Shown here: one piece after another, positions 4,801 to 23,862 of the stretch
Layout of the letters: each line of letters begins with the position of its first letter
How positions within the stretch are numbered: position 1 is the stretch's first letter
Assembly: GCA_943350045.1 (NCBI GenBank)
Contig: CALQZW010000002.1
Span: 1-36,744 of the forward strand
DNA: 36,744 nucleotides
Reading direction: 5' to 3'
DNA from: Candidatus Nomurabacteria bacterium
GTDB taxonomy: Bacteria; Patescibacteriota; Minisyncoccia; Phycocordibacterales; UBA9973
Translations under genes and position numbers: made by a program
Notes under the pieces: generated by a model
What the model was told of the DNA's origin: nothing
Seen by the model: the letters and a program-made list of their open reading frames with translations, nothing else
Databases searched by the model: none

Positions 4801-5778
4801 CCGGCAAGTTTTGATGTATATGTACGATCACTTTCCGCTACTGCAGAAGTAGAAAGTCAGACACTATTCTCGCAGATTCCAATACAGACTGGTTCTGTAT
4901 ATTCACTCGCGATTAGTCCAGCGCAGGAAGTGAGTGTTGTTTTAGAAGAAGAGCAAGACTCGACAATGCTAAGTCATGCAATTACTGCTCAAGTGAGTGG
5001 AGAAGAGTCTTCAGATATTACACCGCCTGCGACTTCTGTTTCAGTAGAAAATGGCACAGTTACTTTGGTTTCGACCGATGGTCTCGCTGGAGTACTACGT
5101 ACAGAATACTCAGAAAACCAAGAGGATTGGACTGCGTATACTGAACCATTCAATGCGTCCGGAAAGCGGATTTGGTACATGGCAACGGACATGGCTGGGA
5201 ACATAGAAGAGGTGCAGTATGTAGATGTTCCAGAAGTTGAAATTGTCTCCGGTGGAGATGGGCAAAATGATGGTGGTGAAGGTGGTACTGGTGACGATGA
5301 AGATTCCGGCACAACATCGGGTGGTGGAGGAGGCACAAGTACTGGCGGTGGAGGTACTGCAAGCGGTGGCGGATATGGTGGAGGCTACACTGGCGGATAT
5401 GGCGGAACAATTGATGATGAAACGAACCCAATACCAACGCCCGAGCCTCAGCCTGAAATAATTCCTGATACTGAAGAAACCACTCCGGAAGTCAGTGAAC
5501 CTATTACTGAAATACTGCCAATGACTGCAATCGAGTTTCGTTCTGAAGTCGCTCGTTTTGCAGTGCCAAGAAAACTTGTCACTCCGGATACTAGTCTCGC
5601 GCAAAAAGCGGATACGGTAGAGAAGGCTGTTCCAGCCGTCTCGGCAAGTGTTGGCAGTGTTTGGATTTCCCAAGCAACCAAGGTTGCCCTGAGTGTATTG
5701 AGTTTATTGCTAATTGTGATTATCATTATCCTTGTGAAGGCAATACGAAAGGAAGAGGATCACTATTTACAAACATAA
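1825..5778 (+). CDS. giant secreted, C-terminally membrane-anchored protein: right-handed beta-helix + LCAT-like alpha/beta-hydrolase (lipase/acyltransferase) + Ig-like/beta-sandwich domains
   Basis: The ORF is open from 1810 (TTG). ATG 1825 lies 6 nt after a TGcATACT box and gives a signal peptide (MENSRNAILVGFWCTLSLVYAMTASVPFARA|E). The N-terminal roughly 480 aa hold repetitive beta-helix (PbH1-like) segments ending in NNWWGDTTGPYN. The lipase core has PVLLIPGNMGSEL, FPYDWR and the nucleophile elbow GHSMGG. A later domain has the D.AGN.E pattern (ATDMAGNIEE). There are two G/D/T-rich linkers and a P/E/T stalk. The final TM helix (VALSVLSLLLIVIIIILV) is followed by KAIRKEE. Confidence 0.85.
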   Translation: MENSRNAILVGFWCTLSLVYAMTASVPFARAETLVPRDLRISEDTTWSLAGSPYIVSGRPVVSSGVTLTIEPGVTVKFTQNENSGLEVAGKISAVGSESDPIVFTTMKENYPGISEYNGIGILTGGIADFKHIKVLHAQYAIYGTKSTITLEDSFIADAYHGMSATDSALTLNRNTFIRLDRPVIIDTGTAGRLSNSNNTITESRYDPNGIRILSGVTDPHQIELKKDVPYIFTGGMQFDSNFSRLLVQEGAEIQMALWNGAGSADRSLNFRNGQYLTVQGTKENPVKFNGIIRASFGSILQLKHAELSNYSGAVLTISHGAKLDAQQSRIYGGASIGVVSMNDAIVTLTETDMEDVRIGIQVSDGGKASMLAGKITGAEYAVFLAGGGEISLHSASVTGNQKGIYSKDTSAKGDNTVRVFQSTISNNGTGFVLEDAIPFIFQNTIENNGIGAQALDDGPVVGMENNWWGDTTGPYNAETNSEGLGNSVTQKIDFDPWLGERAFESPTDGGSDDGGGDTGGGTDGGGNGDDGGEDEETPPALTPVLLIPGNMGSELIKNYGDSAEAWLNLTRLILSPTDAFLNELALLPNGIEDSARPMKIGEMIRSVTPPIGDEVSIYNNLIKTFIDAGYVEGESLFVFPYDWRMSVSTIAPLLATKIYEIQSETNAPKVHLVGHSMGGLVAKQYMADFGGEAVASVAFIGTPHLGSMKATKMLLYGDSMGLGIGKVKVLNANRAKTISQNMPGVYDLLPSKKYTELAREALFSHYDSEEAHTTILGYDHENTKGYMVSAGSNEQLIPRSEIVHEEIDSFSAGSIPVYNFVGCTEGGQDSATISAIQLKNRMALGLDGKKRIKSDYQLLYTSGDGIVSSLSASSVPASQTYMVKDTSHTSLPSSSGLGSVLLAYYKQETPVLSGAVSAMTTECSVLGKAISIHGPVHVSVVDAGGNKTEADADGTITEAITGVSYTQIDDVTFVYVPHAFTGEIQITPKESPASFDVYVRSLSATAEVESQTLFSQIPIQTGSVYSLAISPAQEVSVVLEEEQDSTMLSHAITAQVSGEESSDITPPATSVSVENGTVTLVSTDGLAGVLRTEYSENQEDWTAYTEPFNASGKRIWYMATDMAGNIEEVQYVDVPEVEIVSGGDGQNDGGEGGTGDDEDSGTTSGGGGGTSTGGGGTASGGGYGGGYTGGYGGTIDDETNPIPTPEPQPEIIPDTEETTPEVSEPITEILPMTAIEFRSEVARFAVPRKLVTPDTSLAQKADTVEKAVPAVSASVGSVWISQATKVALSVLSLLLIVIIIILVKAIRKEEDHYLQT

Positions 5779-9310: not shown

Positions 9311-9347
9311 AAAACGCTGTCTTTTAAAAAAAGACAGCGTTTTTTTT
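9311..9347. terminator. bidirectional intrinsic terminator
   Basis: 13-bp stem AAAACGCTGTCTT (9311-9323) / AAGACAGCGTTTT (9331-9343) with A/T runs on both sides. It lies between the convergent genes 8316..9290 and hsp20. Confidence 0.8.
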
Positions 9348-12776: not shown

Positions 12777-12847
12777 GCTTGTACAATACCATTTTTTTTA
12801 CCTTTTGCGAATGGAATGTTTGCCATGCTCTCTGGTATACTTTTTAC

Positions 12848-14005
12848 ATGAAATATTTTAGTCTTTTGTTTCTAACTCTCGTCCTGCTCTCGTCTCCGTC
12901 TCCTGTCTTTGCTGGTCTTGTGTCTTCTGAAGCACTTGCACAGAAATATTCTGCAACCGATACCGGTGGACAGAAAATTAGAGTTTTGCTCGTGCCTGGA
13001 CACGACAACGAAACATGGGGAACTGAGTTTCGCGGAATGAAAGAAGTAGAATTGAACCGAGTGGTGGCAAACAATCTCTATTCCTATTTTTCTAAAGACC
13101 CTGCGTTTGAAGTTTTTATTACCCAAAAAGATGGAGAATACGCAGAACCGTTTGCAACATATCTCACAAGCCAGAAGGAAGCGATTCGGCAGTTTCGAGA
13201 TTCTCATAAGGCGGTTCAACAAGCTCGGCGAGAAAAAGGCGAGGTAGTAGGCGTCTCCGGAGTGAATCACAACTACGCAAGTGAAGAAGTTTCAATCAAA
13301 TTGCATGGAATAAACAAATGGGCGAACGAAAATGATATCGATATTGCTATCCATATTCATTTCAATGACCACGCAGGCAGAGTATGGAATAAGAAAGGGG
13401 AGCATTCTGGTTTTTCAATCTATGTCCCTGAGCCACAACTAAAAAATTCAGCAGTAAGTAAAGACATTGCACGAAAGGTTTCCGAATCTTTAGCTCCTTT
13501 TAGTGCTTTCTCAAGTCTGCCGGGAGAGGGTGGTGGAGTAATAGACGAGCAGGACCTTATTGCTATCGGTCCTTTTAACACGCTCGACTCGGCAACGATG
13601 CTCATTGAGTATGCGTACATTTACGAATCCCAACTTGCGAACCATGCCCTCCGCGAGCGAGTGTTAGAGGAATATGCGTTCCGTACGTATGCTGGAGTGA
13701 AAGATTTTTTTGGTAGTACTCTAGTAAAGAATACCTCGTCGCAGTTGCCACGGTATCGATTTACAAAAAATCTCAAAAATGGAATGGTTGGATCTGCTGA
13801 TGTTTTGATGCTTCAGAGTGCTTTAGTAAGAGCTGGAGTATATCCAGTTGCAGGAAAAGATTTACACGAGTGTCCCGTCTCGGGTACTTTTGGTGCTTGT
13901 ACCGTGGCTTCAGTCCGAGCGTTTCAAAAACAGAAAAAGCTCCCAGTGACAGGATTTGTGGGCGCTGGGACACGAAAGGCGCTAAACACTCTGAATCTTT
14001 ACTAG
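12848..14005 (+). CDS. N-acetylmuramoyl-L-alanine amidase (Amidase_3-like) with C-terminal peptidoglycan-binding domain
   Basis: Signal peptide MKYFSLLFLTLVLLSSPSPVFA, then LLVPGHDNETWG, DIAIHIHFND and LIEYAY blocks. The C-terminal part is PG_binding_1-like (GSADVLMLQSALVRAG...SGTFGACTVASVRAFQKQKKLPVTGFVGAGTRKAL). ATG 12848 lies 6 nt after TGgTATACT. Confidence 0.75.
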   Translation: MKYFSLLFLTLVLLSSPSPVFAGLVSSEALAQKYSATDTGGQKIRVLLVPGHDNETWGTEFRGMKEVELNRVVANNLYSYFSKDPAFEVFITQKDGEYAEPFATYLTSQKEAIRQFRDSHKAVQQARREKGEVVGVSGVNHNYASEEVSIKLHGINKWANENDIDIAIHIHFNDHAGRVWNKKGEHSGFSIYVPEPQLKNSAVSKDIARKVSESLAPFSAFSSLPGEGGGVIDEQDLIAIGPFNTLDSATMLIEYAYIYESQLANHALRERVLEEYAFRTYAGVKDFFGSTLVKNTSSQLPRYRFTKNLKNGMVGSADVLMLQSALVRAGVYPVAGKDLHECPVSGTFGACTVASVRAFQKQKKLPVTGFVGAGTRKALNTLNLY

Positions 14006-14051
14006 ATATATCACATATGATATATTGTTTTCAAACCTAAAAAACAGTTCA

Positions 14052-14582: not shown

Positions 14583-14625
14583 CACACCTGATTCTAGTAT
14601 TATAGAATCAGGTGTAATTTTTATA
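14583..14625 (+). terminator. intrinsic terminator
   Basis: 13-bp stem ACACCTGATTCTA (14584-14596) / TAGAATCAGGTGT (14603-14615), followed by a T-rich tail. Confidence 0.75.
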
Positions 14626-14626
14626 T

Positions 14627-15331
14627 ATGAAAGCAGTTATTTTATGCGCCGGAGAAGGTACGCGCCTTCGTCCGTTGACTGACACAATTCCAAAAACACT
14701 TATTCCTGTTGCAGGTACTCCGATACTCGCGCGGATTTTTTCTACACTTCCTGAGGAGATTTCTGAAGCGGTTTTGGTTATTCAAGAAAAACAAACTGAG
14801 GCGATACAAAATTTTCTCGACACTCTAAAATTAGCTATTCCTGTCTCTATAGCATATCAAGACATGAATGCGAAAGGTACATATCATGCGCTTTTGTCTG
14901 CGAAGCACTACACAGAAAATGCGGATGCTTTTTTAGTACTCAACGGAGATGATATCTTTGTTCAGTCTGAGCTCGCATCTCTTGTCTCTCTTTCAGCTCC
15001 CGCGTACGGACTTGCGAAAAAAGTACTGAACGATATTCGGTATCGCACGTGCGATGTTGATGAGTCACAACAGAAAATTACTTCATTCCGTTTAATACGA
15101 GAAGATGAGAAAGATACTCCGGTCTATTGTTTTACTGGCGCCTGCGTTCTTACGAAGGACTTCTTTACATACGCACCAGAGACTATTTCTTCTGGTGAAG
15201 CAGGAATACCGCATACACTTTTTGCGCACAGTGCCTCTGTTTCATTTACGCGCTTTACAGAGTGGTTGCAGATAAACACTCACGAAGATTTGCGGATTGC
15301 TACCGAAGCTTCATATTCCCTTGAGCAATAA
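14627..15331 (+). CDS. sugar-phosphate nucleotidyltransferase (NTP_transferase family)
   Basis: N-terminal MKAVILCAGEGTRLRPLTDTIPKTLIPVAG, the canonical G-x-G-T-R-L nucleotidyltransferase signature. Confidence 0.8.
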   Translation: MKAVILCAGEGTRLRPLTDTIPKTLIPVAGTPILARIFSTLPEEISEAVLVIQEKQTEAIQNFLDTLKLAIPVSIAYQDMNAKGTYHALLSAKHYTENADAFLVLNGDDIFVQSELASLVSLSAPAYGLAKKVLNDIRYRTCDVDESQQKITSFRLIREDEKDTPVYCFTGACVLTKDFFTYAPETISSGEAGIPHTLFAHSASVSFTRFTEWLQINTHEDLRIATEASYSLEQ

Positions 15332-16460
15332 ACTTGTCTGATGTTAGCGGAGCTGGTTTTTCAAAATATCCTGCAAGTGCAATCATCGCTGCGTTATCAG
15401 TCGCAAGAGTTTTTGTTGGGAAAATAACAGGAATGCCAAGGAGGGAGGCTTCATGCGTGAGGCGAGTGCGAAGCTCTTTGTTCGCAGCAACGCCTCCGCC
15501 AACGAGAATACTTTTTGCCTTATATTTCTTAACCGCCTTGAGTGTTTTATGCACGAGTACATCTACGGCCGAGTCTTCAAACTCACGGGCAATAGCCATT
15601 TTTTGATTTTCTGAAAGTACTCCAAGGTCACGGATGAGATAGAGGATTGCGGTTTTGAGTCCAGAGAAAGAAAAATCAAAGTCCGGAGTGTGAAGCATTG
15701 GGCGAGGAAGGGGTGCAATAGATTCAGAGTTTTGTGCGCGTGCCATATCTGCGAGGCGAGAAATGTGCGGTCCGCCTGGGTATGGCAATTCGAGCATGCG
15801 TGCCACTTTATCAAACGCCTCTCCAACTGCGTCATCTCGTGTCTGTCCGAGGAGTTCGTATTTTCCGATACCTTTTACTCCAACTATTTCAGTATGACCG
15901 CCAGAAACGAGCAGGGAAATAGAGGGAAGTCTTTGAGTGATTTCCTTTGCGGAAAATGTTCCACTTCCGTCGGGTACTACCACGGAGAGAATATGTCCTT
16001 CCATGTGGTTAGCAGGAACAAGAGGAATGTTCCAGATATATGAAAGTGCTTTTGCAAAACTAATTCCAACCCAGAGCGCCGGAGTGAGTCCTGGCCCAAC
16101 AGTGACTGCAATGCGGTCGATATTTGGTTTCTGGATTTTCGGCATCTCGCGAAGAATATATTCGAGTACTTCAGGTTCACGCGCTAAAATGGTTGCGAGT
16201 TGTTCCGTGCGAATGGCACTTCCTGCACTTTCTTTGTACAGACCTGCTTCCTTGAGGGCGACTACGAACAGCGGAAAGATTGCACGAGAGTGCTCACGCT
16301 TTGCCATTGCAGGAAATACGCCTCCATACTGTGCATGGAGTTCGGCCTGAGAAGCTATTTGATGTGCTTTTATAGAGAATGTTTTTTTGAAAACACCCTG
16401 CACGGAAAGCACTGCAATGGCTGTCTCGTCACATGAAGTTTCAATCGCAAGAATATTCAT
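15300..16460 (-). CDS. tsaD: tRNA N6-adenosine threonylcarbamoyltransferase
   Basis: N-terminal MNILAIETSCDETAIAV, plus HMEGH and SGGHTE motifs of the Kae1/TsaD family. At 386 aa it is somewhat longer than usual. Its 3' end overlaps the convergent gene by 32 nt. Confidence 0.9.
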   Translation of the reverse strand: MNILAIETSCDETAIAVLSVQGVFKKTFSIKAHQIASQAELHAQYGGVFPAMAKREHSRAIFPLFVVALKEAGLYKESAGSAIRTEQLATILAREPEVLEYILREMPKIQKPNIDRIAVTVGPGLTPALWVGISFAKALSYIWNIPLVPANHMEGHILSVVVPDGSGTFSAKEITQRLPSISLLVSGGHTEIVGVKGIGKYELLGQTRDDAVGEAFDKVARMLELPYPGGPHISRLADMARAQNSESIAPLPRPMLHTPDFDFSFSGLKTAILYLIRDLGVLSENQKMAIAREFEDSAVDVLVHKTLKAVKKYKAKSILVGGGVAANKELRTRLTHEASLLGIPVIFPTKTLATDNAAMIALAGYFEKPAPLTSDKFIAQGNMKLR

Positions 16461-16465
16461 ACGTC

Positions 16466-17986
16466 TTACATTCCTTTTATAATACGAATTTTAGCACCAA
16501 TTTCGTTGAGACGCTCGGCGATTTCTTCATATCCGCGAGTGATTGAATATACGTTGCGAAGCATGGATGTACCTTCGGCAGAGAGCATTGCAATGAGGAT
16601 GACTGCAGATGGGCGAAGTGCTGGTGGACACACAATCTGCGCTCCGCGAAGTTTCGATGGTCCTTCGATGAATGCACGGTGTGGATCTACGAGGCGAACA
16701 TTTGCTCCGAGTTTGTTGAGTTCAGTGAAATATATGGCGCGGTTTTCCCAGCTCCAGTCGTGAATGAGTGTCGTTCCTTTTGCCATCGTTGCGAGCGCTG
16801 CGAAAAATGGCAGGTTGTCGTTTTGTAGTCCTGGGAACGGAAGCGCGTGAAGTTTGTCGTTCGGTGCAACAAGTGTTGAAGGTTTTACCGTAATATCCAC
16901 GAGGCGAGTACGTCCGTTTTCAGAAAAATATTCCTTACTCACAGAGAGTTTTGCTCCCATGTGAAGAAGTTTTTCTACTTCGAGTTCGAGGAATTCGATA
17001 GGGCAGTGAGTGACGGTAAGTGTTGATTTTGTAATAAGGCCGGCAGAGAGAAAGAACATGGATTCGATAGGGTCTTCACTGTTCGTGTGTTCGACAGTCG
17101 TATCAATATGTCCTTTTCCGTGCACGGTGAGCGTTGTTGTTCCTATTCCTTCAATTTTTACACCCATTTTCTCAAGCAAGAAACACACATCTTGCACTTG
17201 GTAGTTTGGTGGGGCAAAACGGATCTGGCTGACTCCTTCGATTCCCGCCGCTGCGATTATCATATTGATAGCGCCTGTGTCGGAAGATTCATATAAAGGG
17301 AATGAAGCCGGCTTGAGTTTTCCGTGGCGGATATCGTAGGCCTGATCGAGTGTTGTGATCTTTACTCCGAACTTCTCAAGTCCGTATTTATGAGCGGCAA
17401 TAGTACGCTCTCCCATTTTACATCCTCCAGAATGCGGAAAGAAAAACGCATCGCTCCAGTGAATGAGGGCTCCAACGAAAGTAAATGAGCGGGTCTTTCT
17501 CGCAGACTCTAGATTCATTTTTGTGAAATCAAGCTTTTTGGGAGGTGTGATTTCAAGCGTGCTCTCGTCAAGCCAGCGAACTGCAACTCCAAGAGACTCC
17601 ATTATTTCTACGTAGCGATATACCTCTTCGATACGCGGAATACCGTGGAGAATAGTTTTTCCGTGGTTTACGAGCGAGGCGCAGAGCATGTTGATAGCTC
17701 CATTTTTTGAATAGTTTGTTGCAATTGAACCAGAGAGTTTTCGTCCACCTTCAATTTCAAAGTCGATGCTCTTTGAGAGGGAGAGAATCTGGCGACCAAG
17801 GATATCGCTAATTTTCGCAAGTTGAGTAACGGTAAGGTTTTGTTCGCCAGCTTCCATGCGGGCTACTGCACTCTGAGAAGTACTCAGTGCCTTTGCAAAC
17901 TCTGCCTGAGTCAGTCCGCGTTCTTCGCGTAAGTTTTTTATAAACGTTCCGATTTTTTCCTGGTCTTTGGAATGCTTTATGTTCAT
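16466..17986 (-). CDS. murA: XRE-type HTH domain fused to UDP-N-acetylglucosamine 1-carboxyvinyltransferase
   Basis: Residues about 10-70 form an HTH_XRE domain (RGLTQAEFAKALSTSQSAVARMEAGEQNLTVTQLAKI). The remainder has a MurA/EPSP-synthase fold and retains the catalytic Cys loop HSGGCKMGERT. It lies 5 nt upstream of tsaD on the same strand. Confidence 0.85.
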   Translation of the reverse strand: MNIKHSKDQEKIGTFIKNLREERGLTQAEFAKALSTSQSAVARMEAGEQNLTVTQLAKISDILGRQILSLSKSIDFEIEGGRKLSGSIATNYSKNGAINMLCASLVNHGKTILHGIPRIEEVYRYVEIMESLGVAVRWLDESTLEITPPKKLDFTKMNLESARKTRSFTFVGALIHWSDAFFFPHSGGCKMGERTIAAHKYGLEKFGVKITTLDQAYDIRHGKLKPASFPLYESSDTGAINMIIAAAGIEGVSQIRFAPPNYQVQDVCFLLEKMGVKIEGIGTTTLTVHGKGHIDTTVEHTNSEDPIESMFFLSAGLITKSTLTVTHCPIEFLELEVEKLLHMGAKLSVSKEYFSENGRTRLVDITVKPSTLVAPNDKLHALPFPGLQNDNLPFFAALATMAKGTTLIHDWSWENRAIYFTELNKLGANVRLVDPHRAFIEGPSKLRGAQIVCPPALRPSAVILIAMLSAEGTSMLRNVYSITRGYEEIAERLNEIGAKIRIIKGM

Positions 17987-18024
17987 ATTGTCTAGTATAT
18001 CATATATGATATACTAGACAATAT
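17985..18024. promoter_or_regulatory. 40-bp perfect palindrome: overlapping divergent promoters / candidate operator between murA and murB
   Basis: ATATTGTCTAGTATATCATA (17985-18004) is the exact reverse complement of TATGATATACTAGACAATAT (18005-18024). Each half carries TTGTCT, a 16 nt spacer, and TATACT with an extended -10 TG. Confidence 0.8.
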
Positions 18025-19059
18025 ATGGCACTACGCATTGAACACTCAGTTCCGCTCTCAACGCTCTCTACGTTTCGTATGGGAGGCGTTGCAAAAGAAG
18101 TTGTAACTATTTTTTCCGAAGATGACCTTGTGACACTTTTTGGATTATTAAAAACCGACAGAAAATGGTTTGTGCTAGGCGGTGGCTCGAATGTTATTTT
18201 CCCTGACGTTGATTGCGATGCGTTGATTATCCGCGTTGGTATTGAAGCAATCACTGTCGACGAGTCTGATACTGGTACGGTTGTGACTGCTGGAGCAGGT
18301 GCTTCGTGGGATGCGCTTGTTGCGTTTACTGTAACCGCCGGTCTCTCTGGACTCGAAGCTCTCTCGGCAATTCCGGGGTCTGTTGGAGCGACTCCAATAC
18401 AAAACGTTGGTGCGTATGGATGTGAGGTGAAAGATACGATAGTGTCCGTTCGTGCTTTCGATACAGTGCAGAAAGAGTTTGTGGAGTTTTCAAATACAGA
18501 ATGTCAGTTTGCATACCGAGACAGCGTGTTTAAACACGTCGCAAATCGATATATCATCACGGCAGTATCGTACAAGCTCACGAAAGAGAAACCAAAATCA
18601 CCACAGTATCCAGGCGTCTCTGAATATTTTGAGAAACGTGGAATCGCCGAACCAGATCTCTACGATATTCGCTCTGCGATTATCGCAATTCGTGGAACGA
18701 AACTTCCAGACCCTGCGCATATTGCTTCTGTCGGTTCTTTTTTTAAGAATCCGATTATTGAAAAGTCACAGGCAGAACTATTGAAAGAAAAATATCCGAC
18801 GCTCGCAGTATTTCCTGTTTCCGATTCACTTTCGAAGGTAGGAGCCGGTTCTCTTATAGATACTATGGGATGGAAAGGGAAGTCGTTTGGTTCAATTTCT
18901 ATCTATCCTCACAATGCCCTCGTACTTGTGAACGAAGGTGGAGCAACAAAGACCGAACTACAGAAAGTCGTAGATGCGATTACGTTTACTGTGAAAGAAA
19001 AATATGGAATTGAGCTTTCAGTGGAGCCTGAGTTTGTGAGTGAAGAGCTTTTGACATAA
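18025..19059 (+). CDS. murB: UDP-N-acetylenolpyruvoylglucosamine reductase
   Basis: 344-aa ORF with an FAD-binding N-terminal domain (TFRMGGVAKE, LGGGSNV), AGLSGLEALSAIPGSVGATPIQNVGAYG, and a C-terminal MurB domain (GSFFKNP). Confidence 0.9.
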   Translation: MALRIEHSVPLSTLSTFRMGGVAKEVVTIFSEDDLVTLFGLLKTDRKWFVLGGGSNVIFPDVDCDALIIRVGIEAITVDESDTGTVVTAGAGASWDALVAFTVTAGLSGLEALSAIPGSVGATPIQNVGAYGCEVKDTIVSVRAFDTVQKEFVEFSNTECQFAYRDSVFKHVANRYIITAVSYKLTKEKPKSPQYPGVSEYFEKRGIAEPDLYDIRSAIIAIRGTKLPDPAHIASVGSFFKNPIIEKSQAELLKEKYPTLAVFPVSDSLSKVGAGSLIDTMGWKGKSFGSISIYPHNALVLVNEGGATKTELQKVVDAITFTVKEKYGIELSVEPEFVSEELLT

Positions 19060-19846: not shown

Positions 19847-19886
19847 CAAAAACTCCTTGTGGAATATACCATGAGGAGTTTTTTGT
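19847..19886 (+). terminator. intrinsic terminator
   Basis: Stem AAACTCCT (19849-19856) / AGGAGTTT (19874-19881) with a 17-nt loop, followed by a T tail. Confidence 0.7.
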
Positions 19887-19925
19887 TGGCTAGTATATTT
19901 TAGCTTTACGATGTAAAGTAATAGC

Positions 19926-20417
19926 ATGATTACAAAACAACAGTTCATCGAAAGTCTTTGTGCTGAAATTGATATTATTCGCCACCTTGGAACAAAAATA
20001 GATGAGAATATGCTTTCATATCGCCCAAGTGAAAAACAGCGAACACTACTTGAGCTTATGAACTACCTCGGTCATATTTTTTCAACGGGAGTTACTGTAA
20101 ATATTGAAGGAAACACCAATCGCTACATGGAGATAGCGCAGTCTGCACCAGTGGTGACACTTGAGAATTTTGATTCTGTGATGAAAAACCAGAAAGAGTA
20201 TGTGGTTGAAAAAATTACAGGACTCACTGACGAACAGCTTGCAGAAGTTACTGATTTCTTTGGAGGAAAAGCTCCGCGTGCAATTCATATGTTTAACGTA
20301 ATGAAATGGGCCGTTGCGTATAAGATGCAACTATTTTTGTACATAAAGGCAAATGGGAATCACGACATTAGTACTGCAAATCTCTGGCGCGGAGTAGACA
20401 TGGCTCCTACGCAGTAA
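19926..20417 (+). CDS. DinB-superfamily-like (four-helix bundle) hypothetical protein
   Basis: 163-aa ORF. The pattern L.YRPSEKQRTLLELMNYLGHI resembles DinB/YfiT-type helical bundle proteins. The family call is tentative. Confidence 0.55.
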   Translation: MITKQQFIESLCAEIDIIRHLGTKIDENMLSYRPSEKQRTLLELMNYLGHIFSTGVTVNIEGNTNRYMEIAQSAPVVTLENFDSVMKNQKEYVVEKITGLTDEQLAEVTDFFGGKAPRAIHMFNVMKWAVAYKMQLFLYIKANGNHDISTANLWRGVDMAPTQ

Positions 20418-22608: not shown

Positions 22609-22648
22609 GAAAGAGCTGAACGTATATGATACGTCCAGCTCTTTTTTA
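22609..22648. terminator. bidirectional intrinsic terminator
   Basis: Interrupted stem AGAGCTG-A-ACGTAT / ATACGT-C-CAGCTCT (22612-22641) with flanking A and T runs. It lies between convergent genes. Confidence 0.75.
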
Positions 22649-23805: not shown

Positions 23806-23841
23806 TAATAAAAGGTCTAATTGATTATTCAATTAGACCTT
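23806..23841 (-). terminator. intrinsic terminator of the 114-aa gene
   Basis: 12-bp perfect stem AGGTCTAATTGA (23813-23824) / TCAATTAGACCT (23829-23840), with a T-run following on the minus strand. Confidence 0.75.
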
Positions 23842-23862
23842 CTTGTTCTTTGCTGCAGAATT

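Follow-up and report, generated by a model that had tools for sequence, protein, structure and literature searches.

NadR of the Enterobacteria combines an XRE-type helix-turn-helix (HTH) domain with nicotinamide mononucleotide adenylyltransferase and ribosylnicotinamide kinase in one protein, and NadR, BirA and PutA are enzyme-repressors that have been termed "trigger enzymes". XRE antitoxins likewise autorepress via palindromes in their own promoters. The known controls of MurA are all post-translational and comprise proteolysis, kinase-dependent inhibitors and feedback by UDP-N-acetylmuramic acid (UDP-MurNAc). Here we describe a murA gene that appears to join these themes. It is located on a 36,744-nt stretch of DNA from a Candidatus Nomurabacteria bacterium (assembly GCA_943350045.1, contig CALQZW010000002.1; in the following, the window), its product carries an N-terminal XRE-type HTH domain, and the spacer to the divergently oriented murB gene is a perfect 40-bp palindrome. 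Based on the comparison of orthologous loci, we propose that this HTH-MurA protein quite probably represses its own transcription by binding to the central 18 bp of the palindrome, which cover the murA promoter.

The fusion protein is encoded on the minus strand by an open reading frame of 506 codons (16466-17986), in which the HTH and EPSP_synthase domains follow each other in one uninterrupted frame. This agrees with the initial annotation of the stretch, which had been made from the letters alone. The XRE/Cro-C1-type HTH domain comprises residues ∼10-68 (17783-17959, minus strand) and was identified by the Pfam models HTH_3 (residues 16-66; 49.9 bits, cut-off 23) and HTH_31 (42.4 bits, cut-off 27), with the HTH matches lying within residues 12-66. 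The TIGR03070 model for Y4mF/HipB-type antitoxins also matches this region (E = 1.2e-11) under its cut-off, and no match to the RodZ-type HTH_25 was present among the Pfam matches at E ≤ 0.01. The nearest relatives with solved structures are the DNA-binding repressors HipB, C.BclI, C.AhdI, HigA and the 434 repressor. A structural model (AlphaFold2 [AF2] monomer) predicts four helices at residues 7-23, 27-33, 38-45 and 53-63 with a predicted local distance difference test score (pLDDT) of 82-86, followed by a short linker of low pLDDT (residues ∼64-74). The recognition helix reads S37-Q38-S39-A40-V41-A42-R43-M44-E45 and is nearly invariant. Residues Q38, R43, E45, G47, Q49 and N50 are found in all of 121 homologs. 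A search with the HTH alone against representatives clustered at 50% identity was of little use. It returned mostly multi-HTH repeat proteins and fragments, together with a handful of ∼500-517-aa proteins with an N-terminal HTH and no other enzyme fusion.

The enzyme part, residues 75-506 plus the stop codon (16466-17764, minus strand), belongs to the UDP-N-acetylglucosamine (UDP-GlcNAc) enolpyruvyl transferases. Pfam EPSP_synthase covers residues 79-493 (E = 4e-42) over profile positions 2-417 of 417. The MurA subfamily model NF006873 of NCBIfam is matched with a score of 309.7 (cut-off 297), and the equivalog model TIGR01072 gives 297.1 relative to a cut-off of 392.7. MurA chains from the PDB match the domain at E = 2e-50, and the AF2 model (pLDDT 86.8) shows the two-domain enolpyruvyl-transferase fold with Foldseek TM scores of 0.85-0.91 to solved MurA structures. 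From these sequence data the protein is classified as a divergent MurA with predicted catalytic activity, an assignment supported by the adjacent murB gene. In an alignment to 5ujs, residues K94, C189, R194, D390, R416 and R458 correspond to K22, C115, R120, D305, R371 and R397 of the Escherichia coli enzyme. All six active-site residues are invariant in the 121 homologs, so that the catalytic Cys loop is retained as first annotated (C189 being the equivalent of C115) and the catalytic site is apparently intact.

The palindrome extends from position 17985 to 18024 and consists of the arms ATATTGTCTAGTATATCATA and TATGATATACTAGACAATAT, which form a gap-free inverted repeat of 20 nt each with 100% complementarity. 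It is the longest short-range inverted repeat of the 36.7-kb window and folds as single-stranded DNA with -14.6 kcal/mol (z = -7.9 relative to shuffled sequences). It fills the complete 38-nt spacer between the two genes and 2 nt of the murA start codon, which appears as CAT at 17984-17986 on the forward strand, while murB (UDP-N-acetylenolpyruvoylglucosamine reductase; 18025-19059, plus strand) begins directly at its end. Sequence, complementarity and gene boundaries are thus as initially described. The murB product was identified by Pfam FAD_binding_4 and MurB_C and by NCBIfam NF000755 (339.7, cut-off 277). Neither the 17-nt half-site nor the 18-nt core occurs in 100 shuffled versions of the window, even if three mismatches are allowed, which excludes a chance origin of the pattern.

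Each arm of the palindrome also represents a promoter. On both strands, TTGTCT is separated by 16 bp from TATACT with a TG ahead of the -10 element, so that each arm reads TTGTCT-16-TGATATACT at a distance of 7-9 nt from the respective ATG. For murB, the -35-like element is located at 17988-17993 and the extended -10 element (TG-A-TATACT) at 18007-18015, both on the plus strand. For murA, the corresponding minus-strand elements are found at 18016-18021 (-35-like) and 17994-18002 (TGATATACT). We could therefore confirm two completely overlapping promoters, but they are divergent, that is, back to back, and not face to face as initially stated. Usual spacing between the -10 element and the start point predicts transcriptional starts at about 18022 for murB, 3 nt ahead of its ATG at 18025, and at about 17987 for murA, 1 nt ahead of the start codon; the murA transcript would hence be leaderless. 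The 18-bp core (17996-18013) with the halves TATATCATA and TATGATATA occupies positions of about -27/-25 to -10/-8 relative to either promoter. The right half plus two further bases constitutes the extended -10 element TGATATACT.

We then asked how widely the fusion and the core are conserved. All 120 best protein clusters (67-94% identity) contain both the HTH and the EPSP_synthase domain. A scan of GTDB with one genome per species matched 247 species, of which the best 80 loci (64-81% identity) were used. Among these 80, which derive from metagenome-assembled genomes of Paceibacterota, Nomurabacteria and Parcubacteria, all loci include the HTH and only fused forms occur. By these comparisons the HTH-MurA fusion is ancient and widespread rather than a local accident. 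In an alignment of the DNA upstream of murA, in which the core was counted as present if at least seven of the nine symmetric pairs were retained, the 18-bp palindrome precedes HTH-murA in 74 of the 78 testable species loci. Dyad symmetry at orthologous loci had been set as a test beforehand, and the palindrome was found as anticipated. Each half of the core has an information content of 1.7-1.8 bits per position. The motif was detected 78 times over the 522 kb of ortholog loci, 74 times at murA and only four times elsewhere.

The neighborhood of the core is more variable. In about 24-26 of the ortholog loci murB is divergent, with its start at a distance of exactly 8 nt from the core. Another 37 loci have an upstream gene in the orientation of murA; it seems mostly to encode an Nramp transporter, as do the three examples of ∼420-460 aa that we examined. 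The flanks of the core contain 0.2-0.4 bits per position in the orthologs, which corresponds to the lack of a conserved -35 element; at the murA -35 position, relatives carry TTGCAA, TTGCTC or TTGCCA. The core ends 8-12 nt ahead of the murA ATG in 55 of 73 ortholog loci, and a leaderless murA mRNA therefore seems to be the rule. One locus (L077:2900-3003, upstream of murA) encodes a degenerate recognition helix (DIDKTQVIAIEEGKE) and still carries TGATATACT, but the left half of the core is gone. Judged by its sequence, it is a natural case of operator loss. A more distant fusion (L089:7799-10381, minus strand) has murB immediately behind HTH-murA in the same orientation rather than divergent from it; linkage between murA and murB thus recurs in different arrangements.

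Covariation provides a second connection between the core and the HTH domain. Positions 5 and 14, which form a symmetric pair, vary together: 53 loci have T/A, 13 have G/C, one has C/G and seven are mixed. Of these, position 14 corresponds to the "n" of TGnTATA, which the -10 consensus leaves free. If the first residue of the recognition helix is Thr (TTQS vs. TSQS), position 14 is a C in 14 of 14 cases; with Ser or Ala at this place, it is a base other than C in 59 of 60. On a neighbor-joining tree of the MurA domain, Fitch reconstruction places joint changes of the helix residue and position 14 on six branches, and signatures in the surrounding sequence separate at least three clearly distinct co-change events.

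The motif also leads to related HTH proteins outside the murA loci. A scan of metagenome contigs for the exact pattern TATATCAYATRTGATATA retrieved at least 120 loci. In 45 of the 120 loci listed, a profile of the MurA HTH detected a homologous gene no more than 800 nt from the motif, and all 45 genes point away from it. All 47 matches of the profile fall into the 211 kb that surround motifs; the 501 kb of more distant sequence on these contigs contain none. About 28 of these HTH genes encode HTH-MurA, with enzyme domains down to ∼47-60% identity. The remaining motif-linked HTH proteins are small XRE proteins, 11 of which follow a Gp49/HigB-like toxin gene (PF05973) that starts at the motif. 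These antitoxin HTHs are 41-48% identical to that of MurA (tblastn) and have the signature QS..AR.E.G.QN in common with it. Proteins encoded beside the motif in metagenomes fall into only four clusters: HTH-MurA, small XRE proteins, Gp49 toxins and MurB. The link between motif and HTH, together with HipB, the C proteins, HigA and the 434 repressor as nearest structures, supports DNA binding of the MurA HTH, and sequence relatedness suggests a joint capture of HTH and operator from a module of the toxin-antitoxin type. As a side observation, the 18-bp palindrome opens operons of a Gp49/HigB-like toxin and an XRE antitoxin at loci L109, L113, L139, L155, L170, L172, L173, L192, L195 and others; in many of these, the ATG within the palindrome (TATATCATAT-ATG-ATATA) seems to be the start codon of the toxin (MIYN...).

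The perfection of the palindrome over 40 bp has a more restricted distribution than the core. In the closest relative (L081, 94% identical; 5227-5266) the 40-bp palindrome is likewise perfect and differs from that of the window by one compensated pair, with ATATTGTC...GACAATAT replaced by ATGTTGTC...GACAACAT (A to G in one arm and T to C in the other). In relatives of 83% identity (L204-L206), similarity extends over the core and the left flank with its -35 element (ATGTTGCTC or ATGTTGCCA) but not over the right flank. Dyad symmetry of the outer 11 bp in each arm is therefore restricted to this lineage and not conserved. Because the 83% relatives keep only the core while the 94% relative keeps the complete palindrome, the alignments indicate that the outer arms arose by a recent, lineage-specific mirroring of the -35 flank and lie outside of the conserved operator. 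The dyad noted at the murA promoter is accordingly genuine, but the conserved operator is its central 18 bp, and the 40-bp perfection is limited to the window and L081. The matching outer arms could be maintained either by selection, for an extended site or for matched promoters, or by template-switch correction, a process that can keep the arms of quasi-palindromes perfect. A 42-bp perfect palindrome around the core in another locus (L062:1-60) was discarded as a probable fold-back assembly artefact because it lies exactly at a contig end, where the 5′ part of the murA coding sequence recurs in reverse complement as the outer arm.

Three other explanations of the palindrome have to be weighed against autorepression by HTH-MurA. 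The initial annotation had already named one of them, namely that the symmetry merely reflects two overlapping promoters, i.e., a bidirectional promoter with back-to-back extended -10 elements for murA and murB and no repressor. Divergent promoters with such a pseudo-symmetry are common among prokaryotes (PMC12825309, PMC10268837). Both arms contain a -35-like box together with an extended -10 element at the right distance from the ATG, leaderless promoters of this kind are general in this genome, and the spacing of exactly 8 nt to murB recurs in ∼24 loci. Nevertheless, we regard this explanation as quite improbable, since the symmetry persists where such a promoter would not require it. In the 37 loci with a co-directional neighbor and hence without a divergent gene, the left half (1.73 bits per position) is conserved to the same extent as the -10 half (1.84), with 0.26-0.44 in the flanks. 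Among 167 other TGnTATAhT motifs in the window and the 80 loci (560 kb), 161 lack a mirror half and only six have at least seven of nine mirror pairs, whereas all 80 matches at murA do. Moreover, the covarying pair 5/14 is not specified by the -10 consensus, and an identical 18-mer is found ahead of toxin-antitoxin operons that are unidirectional and include a homologous HTH gene. The palindrome might also act as a nucleic acid structure, either as an RNA hairpin or terminator of the upstream gene or as a DNA cruciform. The favorable folding of the 40-mer as DNA, a T-run behind the hairpin in some orthologs and at a second site of the window, and the fact that a stem would produce symmetric covariation as well are in line with this idea. 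As RNA, however, the 18-mer forms only a weak hairpin (-3.3 kcal/mol), and 26 of 200 shuffled sequences fold equally well. The T-run is not conserved, and the leaderless start points lie downstream, which places the element outside of its own mRNA. It is the sequence itself, beyond mere pairing, that is conserved across proteins of 64-81% identity, and a structural role leaves the link to an HTH gene unexplained. We therefore rejected a hairpin or terminator function of the core on the grounds of its weak energy and its conserved sequence, and consider a structural role very unlikely overall.

The remaining alternative accepts the operator but assigns it to a separate XRE regulator or antitoxin, with the HTH of MurA serving as a protein-interaction module as in RodZ-MreB or HppE. 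Small XRE proteins with closely related helices are indeed linked to the same 18-mer, HppE is among the solved structures matched by the MurA HTH, and to our knowledge no DNA binding is known for the XRE-like domains of RodZ and HppE. A RodZ-like role was discarded, as HTH_25 is not matched, the polypeptide outside of the HTH is a MurA enzyme and the most similar solved structures are those of DNA-binding repressors. The distribution of the motif argues against a separate binder more generally: it tracks the fused gene, both by loci (74 of 78) and by occurrences (74 of 78), and the core covaries with the helix of the fusion protein itself and loses its left half where this helix degenerates (L077). 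No HTH paralog is encoded nearby; a stand-alone paralog of the MurA HTH is absent from the window, and the 80 loci contain a single, unrelated exception. Finally, the homologs show no variation at the DNA-contacting residues Q38 and R43 or in the G47-x-Q49-N50 turn. We judge a separate binder to be unlikely.

Autorepression by HTH-MurA, the enzyme-as-repressor circuit suggested in the initial annotation, is thus supported by the comparative evidence, that is, by the dyads at orthologous loci, the covariation and the HTH-linked occurrence of the motif. According to this model, murA (with tsaD) and murB would be transcribed from mirror-image, extended -10 and practically leaderless promoters within the same 40 bp. 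Since the two promoters share their DNA, RNA polymerase could occupy them in only one orientation at a time, and they would compete with each other. The core at 17996-18013, which we predict to be the functional operator unit, would be bound by HTH-MurA as a two-fold-symmetric pair, presumably a dimer; both the physical binding and this stoichiometry are predictions from the comparative data. The operator would lie between the -35 elements and across the -10 elements of both promoters, and its occupancy would block both -10 elements. As the core spans about -26 to -9, a bound protein should exclude RNA polymerase, and from this position we infer that the effect is repression. An increasing MurA level would then switch off murA and, where it is divergent, also murB, so that the first two committed steps of peptidoglycan synthesis would be under negative feedback. 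The weakest step of this model is a possible modulation by UDP-GlcNAc, phosphoenolpyruvate or UDP-MurNAc, for which the short linker makes a coupling between both domains conceivable. In its most far-reaching form, HTH-MurA would be a metabolic sensor built from an HTH and operator captured from an antitoxin: the ligand-driven transition of MurA from the open to the closed state would alter the geometry or pairing of the HTH domains, so that flux through the first committed step would directly set the transcription of murA and murB. We put this forward only tentatively and hold it to be possible, though rather doubtful.

Some of our observations weigh against autorepression by HTH-MurA or restrict it. 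MurA enzymes are generally monomers, and no dimer interface was identified in the AF2 monomer, which has only four predicted HTH helices and a short linker of low confidence. The neighbor-joining tree was not bootstrapped, and the number of independent co-change events is to be read as three to six. Antitoxin homologs with TTQ or TKQ helices follow the T/A form of the motif; the "code" that relates Ser and Thr to T:A and G:C, as read from the alignments, is therefore context-dependent and not universal. In addition, 75 of the 120 metagenomic motif loci listed have no HTH gene nearby and may represent chance occurrences in AT-rich DNA.

A further point of this kind concerns a second copy of the operator core in the window, TATATCACATATGATATA at 14007-14024 with the extended -10 element TGATATATT, which was found by a motif scan and is not conserved in the closest relative L081. 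This copy is located 2 nt past the stop codon of a gene for an Amidase_3/PG_binding_1 protein (12779-14005) and 27 nt ahead of the ATG of a NUDIX gene (14052), and it also has the appearance of a weak hairpin with a T-tract behind it. The scan revealed no core sites in the window other than this one and that of the murA spacer. Given only four matches away from murA in 522 kb and the absence of the NUDIX-linked site from L081, we do not claim a regulon beyond murA.

The promoter architecture of murA is not exceptional within the window. Extended -10 motifs (TGnTAnnnT) end 6-10 nt ahead of the ATG of several unrelated genes, and together with murA and murB the genes with this arrangement start at 1311 (plus), 9841 (minus), 12776 (minus), 17986 (minus), 18025 (plus) and 32690 (plus). 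Shine-Dalgarno-like sequences are rare or almost absent. By these sequence features, extended -10 promoters that lack a -35 element and yield leaderless mRNAs appear to be the default in this organism. The leaderless geometry emphasized in the initial annotation is hence present, but it is the usual state in this genome rather than a peculiarity of murA. Upstream of an unannotated gene (19926-20417), the sequence TTGGCTAGTATATTTTA at 19886-19902 has TTGnCTAGTATAT in common with the left arm of the murA palindrome (three mismatches in 17) and no mirror half; it could be a related promoter. Four GC-richer perfect or near-perfect hairpins in other intergenic regions (14584-14615, 22610-22644, 23810-23843 and 9311-9343), most of which are followed by T-runs, are probably intrinsic terminators, some of them bidirectional, and unrelated in sequence to the operator.

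Downstream of murA, tsaD (15300-16460, minus strand) follows after 5 nt and is probably co-transcribed with it in this lineage. The murA-tsaD unit proposed at the outset is therefore probable here, but the adjacency is retained in only ∼15 of 81 loci. The 3′ end of tsaD overlaps that of a convergent NTP_transferase gene (14627-15331, plus strand) by 32 nt (15300-15331), an arrangement that is also present in L081.

MurA catalyzes the committed, fosfomycin-targeted entry reaction of peptidoglycan synthesis, and if it indeed acts as its own transcription factor, this would be a new principle of cell wall control. The fusion is conserved across an extensive clade of uncultivated bacteria (Paceibacteria/Parcubacteria, with at least 247 representatives at species level), in which gene regulation is almost unstudied and transcription factors are scarce; should the sensor function apply, a lineage with a reduced genome and few regulators would possess a cell wall feedback loop made of one protein. 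A defined 18-bp operator, a predicted Ser/Thr specificity switch and a soluble protein make the system accessible in vitro without cultivation. In the literature that we searched on MurA fusions, HTH domains, Candidate Phyla Radiation/Patescibacteria and trigger enzymes, we found no description of the fusion, of the operator or of a DNA-binding MurA. Within this literature, HTH-MurA would be the first case of enzyme-repressor logic for MurA or peptidoglycan synthesis, with an HTH and operator that, by their similarity, point to an antitoxin ancestry.

A comparison with described systems shows which features are shared and which are not. As in NadR, BirA and PutA, an enzyme and an N-terminal DNA-binding domain are united in one polypeptide, and the predicted logic is the same, with a palindromic operator that covers the promoter of pathway genes, and with autoregulatory feedback. 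In HTH-MurA, however, the enzyme is that of the first committed step of peptidoglycan synthesis, and the dependence on a corepressor that defines BirA and NadR would be hypothetical. RodZ resembles it in carrying an XRE-type HTH at the N-terminus of a cell wall-related protein, but HTH-MurA has neither a transmembrane segment nor an HTH_25 match, and the conserved palindrome argues for DNA binding. Opposed -10 elements in a near-palindrome between divergent genes, with mutually exclusive orientations of the polymerase, are shared with pseudo-symmetric bidirectional promoters (PMC12825309, PMC10268837), but the symmetry at murA exceeds the need of two -10 elements, persists where no divergent gene exists and goes along with an HTH gene. 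The controller (C) proteins C.AhdI, C.BclI and C.Esp1396I of restriction-modification systems are small XRE HTHs that autoregulate via palindromic operators over their own promoter. Their dimer is formed by a fifth helix, whereas four helices are predicted for the MurA HTH, and they both activate and repress at tandem operators, whereas murA has a single conserved core. The XRE antitoxins of the HigA/HipB type in modules with a Gp49/HigB-like toxin (PF05973) have a homologous HTH and the identical 18-bp palindrome upstream of their operon. This common operator suggests how a housekeeping enzyme could have gained a ready-made circuit. The murA locus itself is not a toxin-antitoxin system, because it contains no toxin gene and is flanked by murB and tsaD instead; Gp49 toxin genes were detected at the separate metagenomic loci only. 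Its HTH is fused to an enzyme and not to a toxin-neutralizing segment, and its operator overlaps the leaderless extended -10 promoter of a housekeeping gene.

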